NCBI GenBank assembly: GCA_018304565.1
Contig: JAGVVX010000007.1
Span: 1-39,015, forward strand
Length of the DNA: 39,015 nucleotides
Source of the DNA: Candidatus Aenigmatarchaeota archaeon
GTDB taxonomy: Archaea; Aenigmatarchaeota; Aenigmatarchaeia; GW2011-AR5
Direction: 5' to 3'
Shown here: one piece after another, positions 3,811-34,114 of the stretch
How positions within the stretch are numbered: the first letter of the stretch is position 1
How the letters are laid out: every line of letters starts with the position of its first letter
Program-made: the position numbers and the translations under genes
The notes under the pieces: model-generated
Seen by the model: the letters and a program-made list of their open reading frames with translations, nothing else
Told to the model about the DNA's origin: nothing
The model's database searches: none

Positions 3811-3878
3811 TATATTATTGATTATTAAAAAAACAGCCAATAGCAGCTTAAAAATCTTCCCAAATGTAATTATACAGT

Positions 3879-4640
3879 ATGACAAGAATCATAGCCTGCG
3901 TTTCTGGTAAAGGTGGAGCAGGAAAAACGACGCTTGTCGCCAATATCGGAACAGCAATCGCAGAAATCGGCAAAGACATAATAGTTGTTGATACAAACCT
4001 CACAACACCAAATCTTGGCATTCATCTTGGGGTGCCATTGTACCCAACAACCCTTCATGATGTTCTCAAAGGGCATGCGTCCATCAAAGATGCAATCTAT
4101 GAGCATGATTCTGGCCTCAAAGTAATTCCCGCGGGCCTTTCTATGCGTGACCTGCGCGGCGCAGACATACGTGACCTATCAAATACGCTCCTAGATCTTC
4201 TTGGCAACGCAGAAATAATAATGCTTGACTCGGCTGCCGGCTTAGGCAGGGAAGCACTCACGGCCATGGAAACAGCCGACGAAATTCTTATTGTAACAAA
4301 CCCTGATCTTCCATCGGTTACTGACGCGTTAAAAGCAGCAAGGCTTGCAGAACAAACAGGCACAAAAATCATCGGCGCTGTTATAAACCGCGCAACAGGC
4401 AAGCCGCACGAATTGACAAAATTTGAAATACAAAGCATGCTTGAAAACATAGACATACTGGCAACTATTCCTGAAGATATCAGTGTTCAAAGGGCATTAT
4501 CAAGACGCACGCCTGTAATAAATCACTCTCCAAAATCACCAGCCGCACACAAAATGCGAAGCATTGCAGCACAACTAGTCGGCTATGAGTACAAAATACC
4601 CATACCTTGGTACAGAAGGATTTTACTTCTCAGGCGATAA
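3879..4640 (+). CDS. MinD/ParA-family P-loop ATPase (archaeal MinD-like)
   Basis: Deviant Walker A SGKGGAGKTT at the N-terminus. MinD-like switch regions (DTNL, LDSAAG). 253 aa. Confidence 0.85.
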   Translation: MTRIIACVSGKGGAGKTTLVANIGTAIAEIGKDIIVVDTNLTTPNLGIHLGVPLYPTTLHDVLKGHASIKDAIYEHDSGLKVIPAGLSMRDLRGADIRDLSNTLLDLLGNAEIIMLDSAAGLGREALTAMETADEILIVTNPDLPSVTDALKAARLAEQTGTKIIGAVINRATGKPHELTKFEIQSMLENIDILATIPEDISVQRALSRRTPVINHSPKSPAAHKMRSIAAQLVGYEYKIPIPWYRRILLLRR

Positions 4641-13669: not shown

Positions 13670-14392
13670 ATGATTACTCAAAATACACCTCTTCTTAAAA
13701 TAAATGAAGATATTGCAGAGTTCGTTGGCGCTTTAATTGGAGACGGATATATTTACACTAACAAAAACAAATATATCATAGGATTTACTGGAAATCCTAT
13801 CACAGATAAAGAATATTATGAATATCTAAGAAGATTGATAAATATAGCTTGGAAAAAAGAAGTCAAAATAAAATTAAGAGGGAGAGGCATTAGAATTGTT
13901 ATTAATTCTAAGAATATAGTTAATTTTTTGATAAATGAAATACAAATTAAACACGGAATCAATAAAAGCGAATCTGTAGTAATACCAGAAGTCATGACCA
14001 AAGACTGGAGTTTGACTAAATTAGTAATAAGAGGTATTGTTGATACAGATGGCTCTGTTTTTGTTTCTAAAAAGCCCGGCATAGATATGTACCCTTCTAT
14101 AGAAATTACAACATCGAGCCCTGAATTAGCTTTTCAACTAAGGAATATCCTATTAAGCCGTGGTTTTAGAGTTGCGAAAATATGGAGTTATAAATCTAAA
14201 TTAAGTAAAAGAATTTCTTATAAAGTTCCTCTAAACGGACTTGAAAATGTTGGTAAATGGTTAAAAGAAATAGGCTTTTCCAATCCTTACAAACTGAAAA
14301 GAGCAAAAGAAATATGGGATGGGAGGGATTTGAACCCTCGACATTCCCGACGTAACACAAAAGTGTTATGCTCCACGGTTCCTGCTCAGTAG
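13670..14392 (+). CDS. Free-standing double-motif LAGLIDADG homing endonuclease-like protein
   Basis: Two LAGLIDADG motifs (FVGALIGDGYI and VIRGIVDTDGSV). Start taken at the internal ATG (MITQNTPLL). The last ~25 codons read antisense through the 3' part of the convergent tRNA gene. Confidence 0.85.
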   Translation: MITQNTPLLKINEDIAEFVGALIGDGYIYTNKNKYIIGFTGNPITDKEYYEYLRRLINIAWKKEVKIKLRGRGIRIVINSKNIVNFLINEIQIKHGINKSESVVIPEVMTKDWSLTKLVIRGIVDTDGSVFVSKKPGIDMYPSIEITTSSPELAFQLRNILLSRGFRVAKIWSYKSKLSKRISYKVPLNGLENVGKWLKEIGFSNPYKLKRAKEIWDGRDLNPRHSRRNTKVLCSTVPAQ

Positions 14393-14447
14393 GACTTCAG
14401 CTTCACATCTTTCGATCGTGTGCTCTCCCATGCTGAGCTACCATCCC
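14315..14447 (-). tRNA. Intron-containing tRNA, class II-like (long variable arm); tentative Ser(CGA) with ~50-nt intron at 37/38
   Basis: Minus strand: acceptor GGGATGG/CCATCCC+A. D arm GCTC-AGCATGGGA-GAGC. T arm GAGGG-TTCAAAT-CCCTC. The best anticodon arm is ACACG-AT-CGA-A|intron|T-TGTGT followed by a 15-nt variable arm. The isotype is uncertain: the position-26 spacing is awkward, and discriminator A is unusual for Ser. Confidence 0.65.
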
Positions 14448-14869: not shown

Positions 14870-14890
14870 GTTTATCCTGTGCAAAGGGCT

Positions 14891-14998
14891 TCTCGAACCG
14901 CCGACCCTCACGTCTCTGTCCTGAGATTTATCTGTGTCCCGAAGAACTCCGTTCTTCAAGATAACAGCGTGATGCTCTACCTGCTGAGCTATCGAGGC
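14891..14998 (-). tRNA. tRNA-Asn(GTT)-like 5' portion (acceptor 5' strand through T-loop, with ~48-nt intron at 37/38) lacking any 3' T-stem/acceptor strand; split-tRNA half or relic
   Basis: Minus strand: GCCTCGA-TA-GCTC-AGCAGGTA-GAGC-A-TCACG-CTGTTA|intron|A-CGTGA-GGGTC-GGCGG-TTCGAG, then AAGCCCTTT... The expected CCGCC-TCGAGGC is not found in the following ~450 nt or elsewhere in the window by eye. Confidence 0.55.
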
Positions 14999-26207: not shown

Positions 26208-26215
26208 GACAAATC

Positions 26216-26296
26216 CCTTTCTTTTCTAAAAGAAAGGCCTTTGTATGCTCAAAGAACCAAAGGTTCTTTGGCATCTCAGAAACCTTTGGTTTCTGA
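26216..26296. repeat. Three tandem perfect hairpins immediately upstream of the pilus-operon start codon
   Basis: CCTTTCTTTT-CT-AAAAGAAAGG (26216-26237). ATGC(T)CAAAGAACC-AAA-GGTTCTTTGGCAT (26245-26274). TCAGAAACC-TTT-GGTTTCTGA (26276-26296). Confidence 0.7.
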
Positions 26297-30393: not shown

Positions 30394-30649
30394 GGGCCGG
30401 TAGCTTAGCCTGGTAAGAGGAGAAACTACATTCCTGCGGAGAACGAAGTTCTCCGAGGTCTCAGAGAAGCTCCGCTTCTCTGCAGATCTCCCTCTACCCT
30501 CTTCCTAGAAAGAAGTAAGGTTGGAAGGAGAATAAGATATCTCTTCTGAGGAAAGAGCACCTGTCTTATACGACCTGTTCGGATAATAAACTGAATCCAA
30601 ACAGAACTAGGCTAGCAGGGGGTCGTGAGTTCAAATCTCATCCGGCCCA
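30394..30649 (+). tRNA. tRNA-Ile(TAT) with two introns: ~140 nt in the D arm (about 30418-30557, position 22/23-24/25) and ~43 nt at 37/38 (about 30571-30613)
   Basis: Acceptor GGGCCGG/CCGGCCC+A. D arm GCTT-AGCCTGGT-AAG|...|C. Position 26 is A. Anticodon arm CCTGT-CTTATA|...|A-GCAGG. Variable region GGGTC. T arm GTGAG-TTCAAAT-CTCAT. Spliced length is 73 nt. The canonical intron folds into a 10-bp hairpin. Confidence 0.65.
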
Positions 30650-30655
30650 TCCTTC

Positions 30656-30781
30656 CCTTTCTTTCAGAAAGAAAGGTCTGGATCAACCCCAAAGAAACCA
30701 TGTAATATCTTGGGAGAAGCTGCTTCTCCGAGATCCCGGAATCCAAAGGATTTCGGGAATTCCAAAAAGCCGCGCTTTTTG
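30656..30781. repeat. Four tandem short perfect hairpins in the tRNA-Ile trailer
   Basis: CCTTTCTTT-CAG-AAAGAAAGG (30656-30676). GGAGAAG-CTG-CTTCTCC (30713-30729). CCCGGAATCC-AAA-GGATTTCGGG (30735-30757). CAAAAAGC-CGC-GCTTTTTG (30763-30781). Confidence 0.7.
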
Positions 30782-31565: not shown

Positions 31566-32153
31566 ATGAAAATAGTGCTGAAAATAGGCGGATCGATTTC
31601 AATAAATGAAAACGGACCAGTTGAAGCTTACTTCAGAAAGCTTTTGCCAGTGATAAGACAAATAAAAACAAGGCACCGGCTGATTTTATGGAAAGAAGAA
31701 ATGGAATGGATAGCCATTGAGCTGCTGAGAGTGAATGTAAGGTTTCTTTCCTCGCTGCTCAATATGAAACCCCTGTACAGGTTGGAAGAAATAAGCACAA
31801 AAACAACCGGCGTTATAGGCGGCATAAAGCCCGGCAGGAGCACTGATGCAAATGCAGCTTACTGCGCGGCGAAGATAAAGGCTGATTTGTTCGTAAAACT
31901 TACAAACGTTGACGGAATTTACGATAAAGATCCGCGTAAACACAAGGACGCCAGGAAACTAGAAACGCTAAGCTTTGCTGACCTGAAGAAATTTTCACAA
32001 TCCGGGAAGCCCGGAAGTTACGGCATACTTGACAGGCTTGCAATAGAAACAATAACCAAGCACAAGATAAAGACAGTTATTATGAACGGAAAGGACCCGA
32101 AAAACATACTCAAACTAATCAACGGAGAAAAGATAGGAACTCTGATACATTAA
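31566..32153 (+). CDS. Amino-acid-kinase family protein, UMP kinase (PyrH)-like but lacking the Gly-rich loop segment
   Basis: KIGGS N-terminal motif, GGIKPGRSTDANAAYCAAKIKADLFVKLTNVDGIYDKDP core typical of archaeal PyrH. About 28 aa shorter than typical, and no VVGGG motif after residue 45. Confidence 0.6.
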   Translation: MKIVLKIGGSISINENGPVEAYFRKLLPVIRQIKTRHRLILWKEEMEWIAIELLRVNVRFLSSLLNMKPLYRLEEISTKTTGVIGGIKPGRSTDANAAYCAAKIKADLFVKLTNVDGIYDKDPRKHKDARKLETLSFADLKKFSQSGKPGSYGILDRLAIETITKHKIKTVIMNGKDPKNILKLINGEKIGTLIH

Positions 32154-32194: not shown

Positions 32195-32285
32195 GGGCTT
32201 GTAGTCTAGCGGCTATGACTTTTTATTAGTAGAATACGCTACCCTCACATGGTAGAGATCCCCAGTTCGAATCTGGGCAAGCCCA
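32195..32285 (+). tRNA. tRNA-Val(CAC) with ~18-nt non-canonical intron between D stem and anticodon stem (about 32220-32237, position 25/26)
   Basis: Acceptor GGGCTTG/CAAGCCC+A. D arm GTCT-AGCGGCTA-TGAC. Then TTTTTATTAGTAGAATAC. Then G-CTACC-CTCACAT-GGTAG-AGATC-CCCAG-TTCGAAT-CTGGG. Confidence 0.75.
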
Positions 32286-32944
32286 TACATTTTCAAATAC
32301 TTTCTTTTTGAAAGAGCTTGTTTTATCCGTTTTTTATTTTTGAATCCTATATTTACAATATAATTGTGAATATCTTGTTTTCTTTGCAAGGATATGCGCC
32401 ATATAACCCTTCTTTTATAATCACGTTTTTTATTGGTAAAAGAATATATTGTAGGAGAAAATCCTAACATTTTTAATAGAGACTTTATTTCGTAAGCAAA
32501 AATTTTGTTTGTGCAGTTCCACGATAAAATCAGATAATAACTATTACCACTTTCACGCCAATATACAGTCCCATCTGTATCAATTAAACCACGTAAAAAG
32601 TTTTTACCACATATTTTACTTGAAAATACAAATTTAGGTACTCTAAGTTTATCTAACTTTGGGCCTTTTGGAAAGCCAGTCTTTAATAAAAGATTGTAAG
32701 TATTTTTACAAGCTATTCTTAATTCAATGACATTATAAGGATCGCCTCTTTTTACAATACGAAAAATATGGAAATCAAAAACTTTCGCATATAACTTCTT
32801 GACGTAATTGAAATATTGTTTCTCGGTGCTCGATGTTCCGTATCCGACTTCATTTGGTTTAGATGCAAGCCAACCATCACCTGCATGAATACCACATAAT
32901 TCAGCATAGTTTCCTATTAAGCTTCTATCGACTAATCTAACCAT
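32213..32944 (-). CDS. Free-standing double-motif LAGLIDADG homing endonuclease-like protein (paralog of 13670..14392)
   Basis: Motifs ELCGIHAGDGWL and FLRGLIDTDGTV. The last ~24 codons read antisense through the tRNA-Val body (stop in the D-loop). Confidence 0.85.
   Translation of the reverse strand: MVRLVDRSLIGNYAELCGIHAGDGWLASKPNEVGYGTSSTEKQYFNYVKKLYAKVFDFHIFRIVKRGDPYNVIELRIACKNTYNLLLKTGFPKGPKLDKLRVPKFVFSSKICGKNFLRGLIDTDGTVYWRESGNSYYLILSWNCTNKIFAYEIKSLLKMLGFSPTIYSFTNKKRDYKRRVIWRISLQRKQDIHNYIVNIGFKNKKRIKQALSKRKYLKMYGLAQIRTGDLYHVRVAYSTNKKS
32263..32287 (+). repeat. Direct repeat copy 1 (inside tRNA-Val: T-stem to 2 nt past the discriminator)
   Basis: CAGTTCGAATCTGGGCAAGCCCATA, identical to 33018-33042. 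Confidence 0.85.
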
Positions 32945-33017
32945 TTTATTAAGATTGATAAAATTTGATATAAACTTATAGCCTTTTTATTGTACAGATT
33001 TCAAGATATAAGCTAAA

Positions 33018-33042
33018 CAGTTCGAATCTGGGCAAGCCCATA
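33018..33042 (+). repeat. Direct repeat copy 2: orphan tRNA-Val 3' end fragment
   Basis: CAGTTCGAATCTGGGCAAGCCCATA, 755 bp downstream of copy 1. The two copies bracket the LAGLIDADG gene and its upstream region. Confidence 0.85.
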
Positions 33043-33076: not shown

Positions 33077-34114
33077 ATGGCTGTTGCTTCTGCGCCCGGG
33101 AAAGTTCATTTGATAGGTGAGCATGCGGTTGTCTACGGAGAACCGGCTATATTTGCAGCTGTTGGAATGCGAACATTCGTTACAGCAGAAAAGTCGGATA
33201 GAGTCGGATACAAAGATAAACGATGGGGCCACAACGATTCCTGGTCTCTTGAAGACGTCGTGGCTGCAACAGATGAAGTTGTTGGGTTGTGGAACGCGTG
33301 CGCGCAAAAGCAAGAGTTTTCTGAGCTTTTTTCTAATATAAAGGCAAACAGCTATGAGAACTACAAAAAGGCCGCTATCGGGGCAGCTATGAAAAATCTA
33401 GGAATTAACGGCGGAATTTCCATCAGTATAGAGTCCCAGTTGCCAGCAGGCGCCGGCCTAGGCTCTTCAGCCTCTCTTTCGGTAGCCGCCGTAAATGCAA
33501 TAGCCGCCGAATACGGAAAAAGCGTTTCGAAAGAAGAGACAAACCGAATCGCCTACGAGCTTGAAAAGATTATTCACGGCACGCCCTCTGGAGGCGACAA
33601 TTCGGCCTGCTGCTATGGTGGCCTTATATGGTTTCAAAAGCCGAATACAATTCTGTCGCTTAAAGAAGAAATACCTTACAAACTTGAAAACTTCATCCTG
33701 GTTTATACAAACCAGCCGGAAAAAACAACCGGTGAATTAGTACAAAGTGTAAGAAATCTGGAAGAAAACCTCAGAAATCACTGCGTTCATGAAATAGGCA
33801 GATTGGCAAAAGATATGCGCGAAGCACTGAAAATCAGGGACCTTGAAACAATGAAAAGAACAATAAACAGGAATCAACAGATACTTGCAAAGCTCGGCGT
33901 GTCAACACCCGAGATTGATGAGATGGTTTCAGCGATTAAAGAAAAGGGCGGGGCTGCCAAGCTTTGCGGTGCGGGCGGCGGCGGCATGGTTCTTTGTTAT
34001 CACGAAAAGAAGAATATATTGCTAGAAACAATCCGCGACTTAGGTTATGAACCTTTGGAGACAGATTTAGCTGTAGAAGGCGTGAAAATTGAAAATGAGA
34101 ACAGCAATACCTAA
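33077..34114 (+). CDS. mvk: Mevalonate kinase
   Basis: APGKVHLIGEHAVVYG N-terminal motif. GHMP motif PAGAGLGSSASL. C-terminal KLCGAGGGG. Confidence 0.85.
   Translation: MAVASAPGKVHLIGEHAVVYGEPAIFAAVGMRTFVTAEKSDRVGYKDKRWGHNDSWSLEDVVAATDEVVGLWNACAQKQEFSELFSNIKANSYENYKKAAIGAAMKNLGINGGISISIESQLPAGAGLGSSASLSVAAVNAIAAEYGKSVSKEETNRIAYELEKIIHGTPSGGDNSACCYGGLIWFQKPNTILSLKEEIPYKLENFILVYTNQPEKTTGELVQSVRNLEENLRNHCVHEIGRLAKDMREALKIRDLETMKRTINRNQQILAKLGVSTPEIDEMVSAIKEKGGAAKLCGAGGGGMVLCYHEKKNILLETIRDLGYEPLETDLAVEGVKIENENSNT

Follow-up and report, generated by a model that had tools for sequence, protein, structure and literature searches.

How does a perfect copy of a tRNA 3' end come to lie on both sides of a DNA unit that encodes a homing-endonuclease-like protein and no integrase? 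The question is raised by a 39,015-nucleotide stretch of the genome of a Candidatus Aenigmatarchaeota archaeon (contig JAGVVX010000007.1 of assembly GCA_018304565.1), the whole of which is here called the window. In the window, a 25-bp direct repeat of the 3' end of a tRNA-Val(CAC) gene brackets a 755-bp unit with an open reading frame (ORF) of the LAGLIDADG family. An earlier note on this DNA had read the repeat as the mark of an insertion into the tRNA 3' end, and had pointed out its likeness to the attL/attR footprint of site-specific integration. Homing endonucleases are usually pictured in introns or inteins, inserting without a scar. From the comparison of related loci, we conclude that the att-like repeat in the window is not an integrase footprint, and that the 755-bp unit is probably a free-standing LAGLIDADG cassette, spread by DNA repair and specialised on the tRNA-Val(CAC) genes of Aenigmatarchaeota and other DPANN archaea.

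The repeat and the unit that it encloses

The locus is composed of the following features (window coordinates, strand, description and source).

31566..32153, forward: amino-acid-kinase-family gene (isopentenyl-phosphate-kinase-like), host flank (Pfam AA_kinase)
32195..32285, forward: intact resident tRNA-Val(CAC), with an 18-nt insert at about 32220-32237 (ARAGORN, Rfam)
32213-32944, reverse: LAGLIDADG ORF of 243 aa (Pfam LAGLIDADG_3, 4e-13)
32213..32281, reverse: tail of this ORF, residues 222-243 and stop codon, from the antisense strand of the tRNA gene
32263..32287, forward: left repeat copy, from T-stem position 51 to the discriminator plus 2 nt
32282..32944, reverse: folded part of the double-motif LAGLIDADG gene, about residues 1-221 (Pfam, AlphaFold2)
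32945..33017, reverse: sequence 5' of the endonuclease gene, at the distal end of the inserted unit (read from the sequence)
33018..33042, forward: right repeat copy, an orphan 3' fragment of the tRNA that lacks any 5' tRNA part or partner
33077..34114, forward: mevalonate kinase gene mvk, host flank outside the element (Pfam GHMP kinase N and C domains)

Both copies of the 25-mer (CAGTTCGAATCTGGGCAAGCCCATA) are exact, lie on the forward strand and are 755 nt apart, as the earlier note had described. No further copy is present in the window with up to three mismatches allowed, and the number of matches expected by chance is 0 (100 shuffles). The left copy belongs to a tRNA gene with an 18-nt insert after the D arm; for this reason ARAGORN labels it 'Leu', and the Rfam match is limited to its anticodon and T arms. 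Without the insert, which is a non-canonical intron between the D arm and the anticodon stem, ARAGORN returns a canonical 73-nt tRNA-Val(CAC). The right copy ends 34 nt upstream of the start of mvk (33077), whose protein shares 87-99% identity with the mvk proteins of Aenigmatarchaeota.

The 730 nt between the repeat copies hold one real gene, the LAGLIDADG ORF, on the strand opposite to the tRNA. It is the sole family match there (Pfam), and no integrase is enclosed, in agreement with the earlier note. The guanine-plus-cytosine (GC) content of the unit is 0.28-0.33, compared with 0.40-0.50 in the flanks. The ORF lacks its own stop codon and reads in antisense through the left repeat into the tRNA gene, and the repeat is translated as the tail '...MYGLAQIRT'. 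A TATA-like TTTATAT at 32968-32974, located 24-30 nt 5' of the ATG, is a putative promoter by its likeness to the archaeal consensus.

The encoded protein looks like an intact monomeric two-domain LAGLIDADG enzyme. Its motifs GIHAGDG (D23) and LIDTDG (D124) show no or almost no variation in 26 sequences. The AlphaFold2 model (predicted local distance difference test, pLDDT, 86.5; predicted template modelling score, pTM, 0.84) has a two-domain LAGLIDADG fold that is confident for residues 1-221, while residues 222-243, encoded by the antisense strand of the tRNA, are disordered (pLDDT < 50). In Foldseek, the archaeal intron endonuclease I-Tsp061I ranks first (2dch; E 3.8e-11, target-normalised TM-score 0.73), ahead of intein endonuclease domains and of I-DmoI; a match was also found at the sequence level. 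With I-Tsp061I and I-DmoI the protein shares the monomeric two-domain archaeal fold, and those enzymes, too, target genes of stable RNAs. However, they lie on the sense strand of rRNA introns that are spliced out, whereas the window gene lies outside the mature tRNA, on the opposite strand and with no intron to shelter it, and identity to them is 15-18%. Since the ORF is on the antisense strand and the tRNA does not need the unit spliced out to be complete, the gene is not borne by an intron or intein. For the same reasons, we rejected the 755 bp as a giant intron in the T arm.

Empty, filled and altered sites in sister genomes

Close relatives of the window were located through homologs of mvk. 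The independent assembly L113, which is 99.4% identical to the window, has the same junction of orphan, endonuclease gene and mvk, and the arrangement is thus not an assembly artefact. In L107 (mvk 90% identical), the 3' end of tRNA-Val(CAC) runs straight into the same flank (ATAAAACCCTTAAAAACTCTGGG...ATG(mvk)), in the very place that the orphan occupies in the window. This is the uninterrupted tRNA-Val/mvk junction for which the earlier note had proposed to search sister genomes, and it confirms that the duplication marks an insertion into the tRNA 3' end. L114 provides the corresponding empty site for the lineage of another locus, L004: its MVD-like protein is 83% identical to that of the L004 host, and its tRNA-Val(CAC), ending AGCGGTTCGAATCCGCTCGAGCCCA, lies directly upstream of the MVD-like gene. 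L107 and L114 are both clean empty sites without duplication. Altogether, the endonuclease gene is present in the window and in L113, and is absent at the same tRNA in L107, L109, L114, L025 and L009.

A different state is found in L109-L112 (mvk 87% identical). There a full tRNA is followed by a 115-nt spacer and then by a perfect 21-nt orphan of the genomes' own allele, and the locus has no endonuclease gene. L109 therefore carries the orphan without any LAGLIDADG gene, which the earlier note had named as an observation that would refute its account. It follows that the endonuclease gene is not needed to maintain the repeat. Across the family, the orphan is still tied to the endonuclease gene (Fisher p = 0.0056; counts are given below). 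The spacer was considered as a decayed endonuclease gene, a possibility that we rejected (z = 0.05 against the window unit); a tblastn comparison with the endonuclease gave no signal beyond the antisense-tRNA tail.

The spacer of L109 (3830-3944) instead matches a hairpin repeat that occurs at 26208-26294 and 30654-30679 of the window and in the tRNA trailer of L009. Members of this family, which in the window extend over 26208-26294 and 30654-30700, read CCCTTTCTTTC..GAAAGG and then CCCAAAGAAAC, and lie after tRNA genes and upstream of an ORF. The repeat may be a motif of terminators or trailers; alternatively, it may be a miniature mobile element. It is found also inside an extra 61-nt intron at 37/38 of the tRNA-Val(CAC) of L107 (about 3830-3965), which the tRNAs of the window and of L109 do not have. 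Another tRNA gene of the window, at 30394-30651, is followed by a hairpin at 30649-30683; it spans 258 nt, with one or more large introns (5' end GGGCCGGTAGCTTAGCCTGGTAAGAG, 3' end GTGAGTTCAAATCTCATCCGGCCCA), and was missed by both ARAGORN and Rfam.

The kinase gene upstream of the tRNA varies between these genomes as well. In comparison to L109, the window ORF at 31566-32153 has a 20-aa in-frame deletion, with loss of the segment CIGGGKFIRKYYKSIEKLGL, and it may be a decaying paralog. In L107 the kinase gene is split, and a 94-aa ORF on the minus strand lies between it and the tRNA. L107 and L109 have a second AA_kinase gene directly downstream of the MVD-like gene.

The altered sites bear on two explanations that differ from ours. 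According to the first, the duplication is older than the gene and independent of it: slippage or error-prone repair duplicated the tRNA end, and the gene landed or was swapped in later. The duplication around an unrelated hairpin-repeat spacer in L109-L112 argues for this sequence of events, as does the match of the repeats to the genome's own allele in both the window and L109, while the absence of any duplication at the clean empty sites of L107 and L114 argues against it. According to the second, the unit is a non-autonomous integrative cassette, bounded by attL and attR through a tyrosine or serine recombinase that the host or a different element supplies in trans, with the endonuclease gene as cargo. 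The classic footprint of att sites is just such a perfect direct repeat of a tRNA 3' end, and the content of the slot varies from the endonuclease gene (window, L113) to the 115-nt spacer (L109-L112) to nothing (L107), as exchange or excision would make it do. The evidence from more distant loci weighs on both.

Homologs beside tRNA-Val(CAC) and their orphan tRNA ends

A protein search returned 25 close homologs of the endonuclease, with 42-73% identity and source names in Aenigmatarchaeota and Woesearchaeota (DPANN archaea). The homologs adjoin tRNA-Val(CAC) in all of the approximately 20 loci that we inspected (the window, L001, L004, L006, L008, L031-L044 and L116). Most of the genes converge on the tRNA 3' end, with a common junction of CCCA plus 1-3 nt. 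Four are located immediately 5' of the tRNA, on the same strand, and no 5' orphans were found at these four. Nearly all homologs have C-termini that are antisense peptides of the tRNA T arm, such as GPAQIRTGD and GRAGIEPA. The minimal unit measures 0.73-0.95 kb, recurs in more than 10 divergent lineages, and contains either the endonuclease gene alone or this gene together with a 50-aa AbrB/MazE-like gene. The latter (PF04014, 49-53 aa; L001 2759-2920, L004 904-1053, L116 1-142) is divergent from the endonuclease gene, lies between it and the orphan, and may regulate the cassette. It was rejected as an essential part, being confined to the L001/L004/L116 lineage. We found no literature on LAGLIDADG genes that abut tRNA genes in DPANN or other archaea.

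The recurrence of so compact a unit bears on one of the alternatives in the earlier note, a remnant of a larger integrated virus or plasmid from which all but the endonuclease gene was lost. The tRNA 3' repeat and the low GC content of the insert would suit such a remnant. We nevertheless regard it as very unlikely, as the same unit is found in many divergent lineages, in each with its ORF fused to the tRNA end, 100 related loci yielded no larger version, and no relatives of the endonuclease were found in viral contigs.

The repeat itself does not belong to a dispersed family. The genome-wide search that the earlier note had suggested was run with the 23-mer CAGTTCGAATCTGGGCRAGCCCA on 185,579 species genomes. 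It returned 18 loci, from many archaea and some bacteria. Each is an ordinary tRNA-Val gene present in one copy, with a GAC, CAC or TAC anticodon, and the duplication was not seen a second time. Since it is only single-copy elsewhere, the repeat is not part of a multi-copy family. Moreover, as the 23-mer at the 3' end is common to tRNA-Val genes with GAC, TAC and CAC anticodons, the restriction to CAC is not explained by the tRNA end alone, and recognition of this isoacceptor would have to involve more than that end.

No exact direct repeats of at least 11 nt were found around the endonuclease homologs, because the orphans of other lineages have diverged. Orphans were detected with a profile of tRNA-Val 3' ends and with Smith-Waterman scans around the homologs. 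By the profile, 8 of 14 distinct lineages that carry the gene have an orphan tRNA 3' fragment on its far side, compared with a downstream 3' fragment at 2 of 21 tRNA-Val loci without the gene (Fisher p = 0.0056). The orphans are clear in L001, L004 and L006 and fragmentary in L008, and further ones are found in L032, L033, L037 and L040; an endonuclease gene followed by a duplicated tRNA 3' end is seen in the window and in seven further lineages. The orphans start at tRNA positions of about 42-54. They are degenerate in L006 (which keeps two of five T-stem pairs), L008 and L033, and this decay, together with their absence from six lineages, argues against selection on them.

These data also weigh on the idea, raised in the earlier note as a 3' exon usable in trans, that the orphan is functional: a split tRNA might use it as an alternative 3' exon or as one joined by trans-splicing, or it might act before mvk as a tRNA-like regulatory fragment. 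DPANN archaea are known to possess split tRNA genes, and the orphan is perfectly conserved in the window and in L109, within the upstream region of mvk. Elsewhere, however, the orphans are decayed, fragmentary or missing, as just described. In addition, the L004 orphan would, from its sequence, mispair with the acceptor stem of the resident tRNA, and in the window the resident tRNA is complete alone, with no second 5' half present. A functional orphan is therefore hardly credible.

To decide which copy of the tRNA end is the native one, alleles can be compared. The exons of the window tRNA match those of L001 at 70 of 73 positions, L025 at 68 and L004 at 67, and the allele of L107 and L109 at only 55 of 73, although the window shares with the latter two 87-90% identity in the mvk protein and 87-92% in the flanking DNA. 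As the tRNAs of L001, L004 and L025 belong to much more distant genomes, the locus has undergone an exchange of tRNA alleles. The closest homolog of the window endonuclease (73%), in L116, lies beside a tRNA of the L114 allele type. The L001 orphan is identical to the end of the resident tRNA of L116 (25/25) and shares only 16/25 positions with its own resident; the L004 orphan shares 21/25 with L116 and with L114, which has no endonuclease gene, and 17/25 with its own resident; in L006 orphan and resident share 15/25. The T-stems of the L001 and L004 orphans (GGCGG/CCGCC) are perfectly paired, which indicates an origin in a functional tRNA rather than drift. On these identities, the orphan in L001 and L004 reads as the displaced native-type end, and the working tRNA as an imported allele. 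In the window, the two repeat copies are identical and both differ from the sister-genome allele. The allele of L109 and L107 itself looks chimeric, with an anticodon arm like that of L114 and L116, a T arm like that of the window and L004, and a join near the variable loop, where orphan boundaries also fall.

A sister clade of the endonuclease (27-35% identity), found by a metagenome scan in approximately 60 loci (L045-L106), is located immediately upstream of tRNA-Arg(TCG), on the same strand. In about 45 loci the ORF stops within approximately 45 nt of the tRNA 5' end and often overlaps it; the others are at contig ends or beside tRNAs, mostly with introns, that ARAGORN calls Arg-TCT, SeC, Gly, Phe or Leu. 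Here, 6 of 40 loci have an orphan tRNA 5' fragment upstream of the endonuclease gene, and no control region has one. The fragments consist of the acceptor strand and D arm, end at about positions 21-29, and come just after an A/T-rich promoter-like stretch, which suggests that the endonuclease gene may be transcribed from the displaced tRNA promoter. The 5' orphans of the Arg clade are the mirror image of the 3' orphans of the Val clade.

The window holds a second free-standing LAGLIDADG gene (13670-14392, forward strand), with about 30% identity to the Arg-clade protein P0026. Its C-terminus reads in antisense into the 3' end of a tRNA-Ser(CGA) (14315-14447, reverse strand; 50-nt intron) at the same junction, CCCATAT, and no clear orphan is present in the 60 nt 5' of its ATG. 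Taken together, the Val, Arg and Ser cases show that these genomes, as a general trait, have free-standing LAGLIDADG genes joined to particular tRNA genes. Nearby, at 14870-14998 on the reverse strand, Rfam has a 64-nt tRNA match (14935-14998), which resembles either an orphan fragment or the 5' portion of a tRNA with several introns; it is directly upstream of a NUDIX-like gene and in the same mechanical ORF.

The wider family makes both explanations left standing above improbable. If the duplication were older than the gene, orphans would not be expected to be enriched beside the gene (8/14 against 2/21), to recur in lineages whose endonucleases are only 42-63% identical, or, in several cases, to derive from a tRNA allele other than the resident one; the mirror-image orphans of the Arg clade are hard to explain by coincidence. 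We thus give an older, independent duplication little weight. An integrative cassette mobilised in trans is likewise a doubtful account. No recombinase or integrase was found in or beside the unit among the called genes of more than 15 related loci, the cargo is always a LAGLIDADG gene whose ORF is physically joined to the tRNA end, viral contigs yielded no relatives, and the Arg clade has its duplication at the 5' end. The two copies in L001, L004 and L006 share 15-17 of 25 positions, little beyond the T loop and CCCA. As in archaeal elements of the SSV and pNOB8 types, a repeat of a tRNA 3' end brackets low-GC foreign DNA and the incoming copy restores the tRNA; unlike in those elements, the unit is shorter than 1 kb, has neither an integrase nor integrase fragments, and in related loci has repeat copies too divergent to serve as att cores.

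Proposed spread by repair and its place among known systems

The cassette that we favour would consist of an approximately 25-nt copy of the tRNA end, an endonuclease gene that runs on the other strand, and this gene's own short upstream region. Its copy of the tRNA end likely completes the working tRNA, and in antisense supplies the disordered tail of the ORF and its stop codon. The second repeat copy would then be, as seems to us the better reading, the previous 3' end of the tRNA, displaced 755 bp downstream with its original flank attached.

Such a cassette could spread as follows. The enzyme would cut tRNA-Val(CAC) genes that have no cassette, and the break would be repaired by copying from a donor that bears one. 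One broken end would invade the donor tRNA, with the tRNA body as homology, and repair would copy the rest of the tRNA and the endonuclease gene. The new strand would then be connected, by short homology or by end joining, to what is left of the broken tRNA on its 3' side. In this way, the incoming DNA would bring a replacement tRNA end, and sometimes a whole allele, and the old end would become the orphan, which would later decay. Recombination between the repeats would delete the unit precisely and leave an empty site such as that of L107. The perfect repeat of the window probably reflects identical incoming and resident tRNA ends or a later homogenisation of the two copies. The orphan boundaries of the Val (about 42-54) and Arg (about 21-29) clades bracket the anticodon arm, which hints that the break may fall there; a break in this arm might also fit the specificity for one isoacceptor. 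Among the three alternatives of the earlier note, the gene-conversion scar comes closest to this evidence. Its interpretation is supported in part, for the insertion and the absent integrase, but not for a larger-element remnant or an exon used in trans.

Several observations weigh against repair-driven spread of the cassette. The duplication of L109-L112 exists without the endonuclease gene, around a 115-nt unrelated spacer, and 6 of the 14 lineages with the gene have no orphan. The cut site is bracketed only by the orphan starts of the Val clade and the orphan ends of the Arg clade. In both the window and L109, whose alleles differ at four positions within the repeat, orphan and resident share the genome's own allele, which would require transfer of the whole block within the population, re-invasion, or gene conversion between the copies. 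Finally, the 3' halves of resident tRNAs can be identical with and without the gene (L004 and L025), and spread by cutting and repair leaves unexplained how the host copy escapes cutting. The L109 duplication, the shared alleles and the identical 3' halves leave some weight with an integrative cassette moved in trans and with a local duplication that came first.

The closest parallel is found in fungal mitochondria. There, mobile ORFs (mORFs) inserted at atp6, atp9, cox2 or nad3 bring a foreign C-terminus for the gene, and the native C*-terminus is kept downstream as a duplicate that matches ORF-less relatives (PMC3630166). The hybrid genes include atp6, atp9, cox2 and nad3 of Glomus (PMC3630166), and an atp6 mORF of Allomyces macrogynus goes back to a 1994 paper as cited in the same source. 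The earlier note was right that textbook homing does not predict a repeat; its statement that homing does not duplicate the target was too strong, as fungal mORFs do duplicate the 3' end of the host gene (PMC3630166). In both systems, a conserved host gene has a free-standing endonuclease ORF (LAGLIDADG, in fungi also GIY-YIG) at its 3' end, a replacement for that end comes with the insert, the displaced native end matches ORF-less relatives (here in L001 and L004; in the window the two copies are identical), and the distribution among close relatives is patchy. They differ in that the host gene here is an archaeal chromosomal tRNA rather than a mitochondrial protein gene, and the duplicated piece is only 21-33 nt long. 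Furthermore, fungal mORFs are fused in phase, whereas the window ORF is antisense and takes its stop codon from the antisense strand of the tRNA, and here a sister clade acts, co-oriented, at the 5' end of another tRNA (Arg).

A second parallel is SegB of phage T4, a free-standing homing endonuclease in a tRNA gene cluster that drives inheritance of the tRNA region: it cuts this region in SegB-less relatives and is co-inherited with the flanking tRNA DNA (PMC2330249). As in the window, its gene adjoins tRNA genes. SegB is, however, a phage GIY-YIG enzyme with no partial tRNA duplication described in its locus, and it is not bound to one isoacceptor gene across many hosts.

The cassette belongs to an apparently undescribed superfamily of tRNA-specific endonucleases in DPANN archaea. 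One could go further and suppose that this superfamily of isoacceptor-specific LAGLIDADG cassettes (Val-CAC, Arg-TCG, Ser-CGA) breaks tRNA genes, imports replacement alleles and leaves tRNA halves behind, with tRNA introns as immunity at the DNA level. We hold this extension to be speculative and, as a whole, unlikely. It would likewise take some boldness to see in the cassettes a generator of fragmented tRNA genes, whose 5' halves keep a promoter and whose 3' halves do not. The tRNA introns of these lineages are unusually rich and variable, at 26/27 and 37/38, and differ between sister genomes; the empty-site L107 has its extra 61-nt anticodon-loop intron, and its invaded relatives do not. 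Randau and Söll have reportedly proposed that disruption of tRNA genes protects against mobile elements. The idea of protection by introns is directly testable, as natural allele pairs exist with and without the intron and with and without the cassette.

These findings point to an archaeal endonuclease family with its home next to particular tRNA genes. Its diagnostic mark is a partial duplication of the tRNA, and it appears to exchange tRNA alleles from one lineage to another. The cassette accounts for an att-like repeat without an integrase, and warns annotators that repeats of tRNA ends are not always the sign of integrated elements. It also offers a set of compact enzymes (approximately 220 aa) whose natural targets can be narrowed down by genome comparison. 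For DPANN archaea, it would be a natural source of tRNA gene fragments and of tRNA allele replacement.

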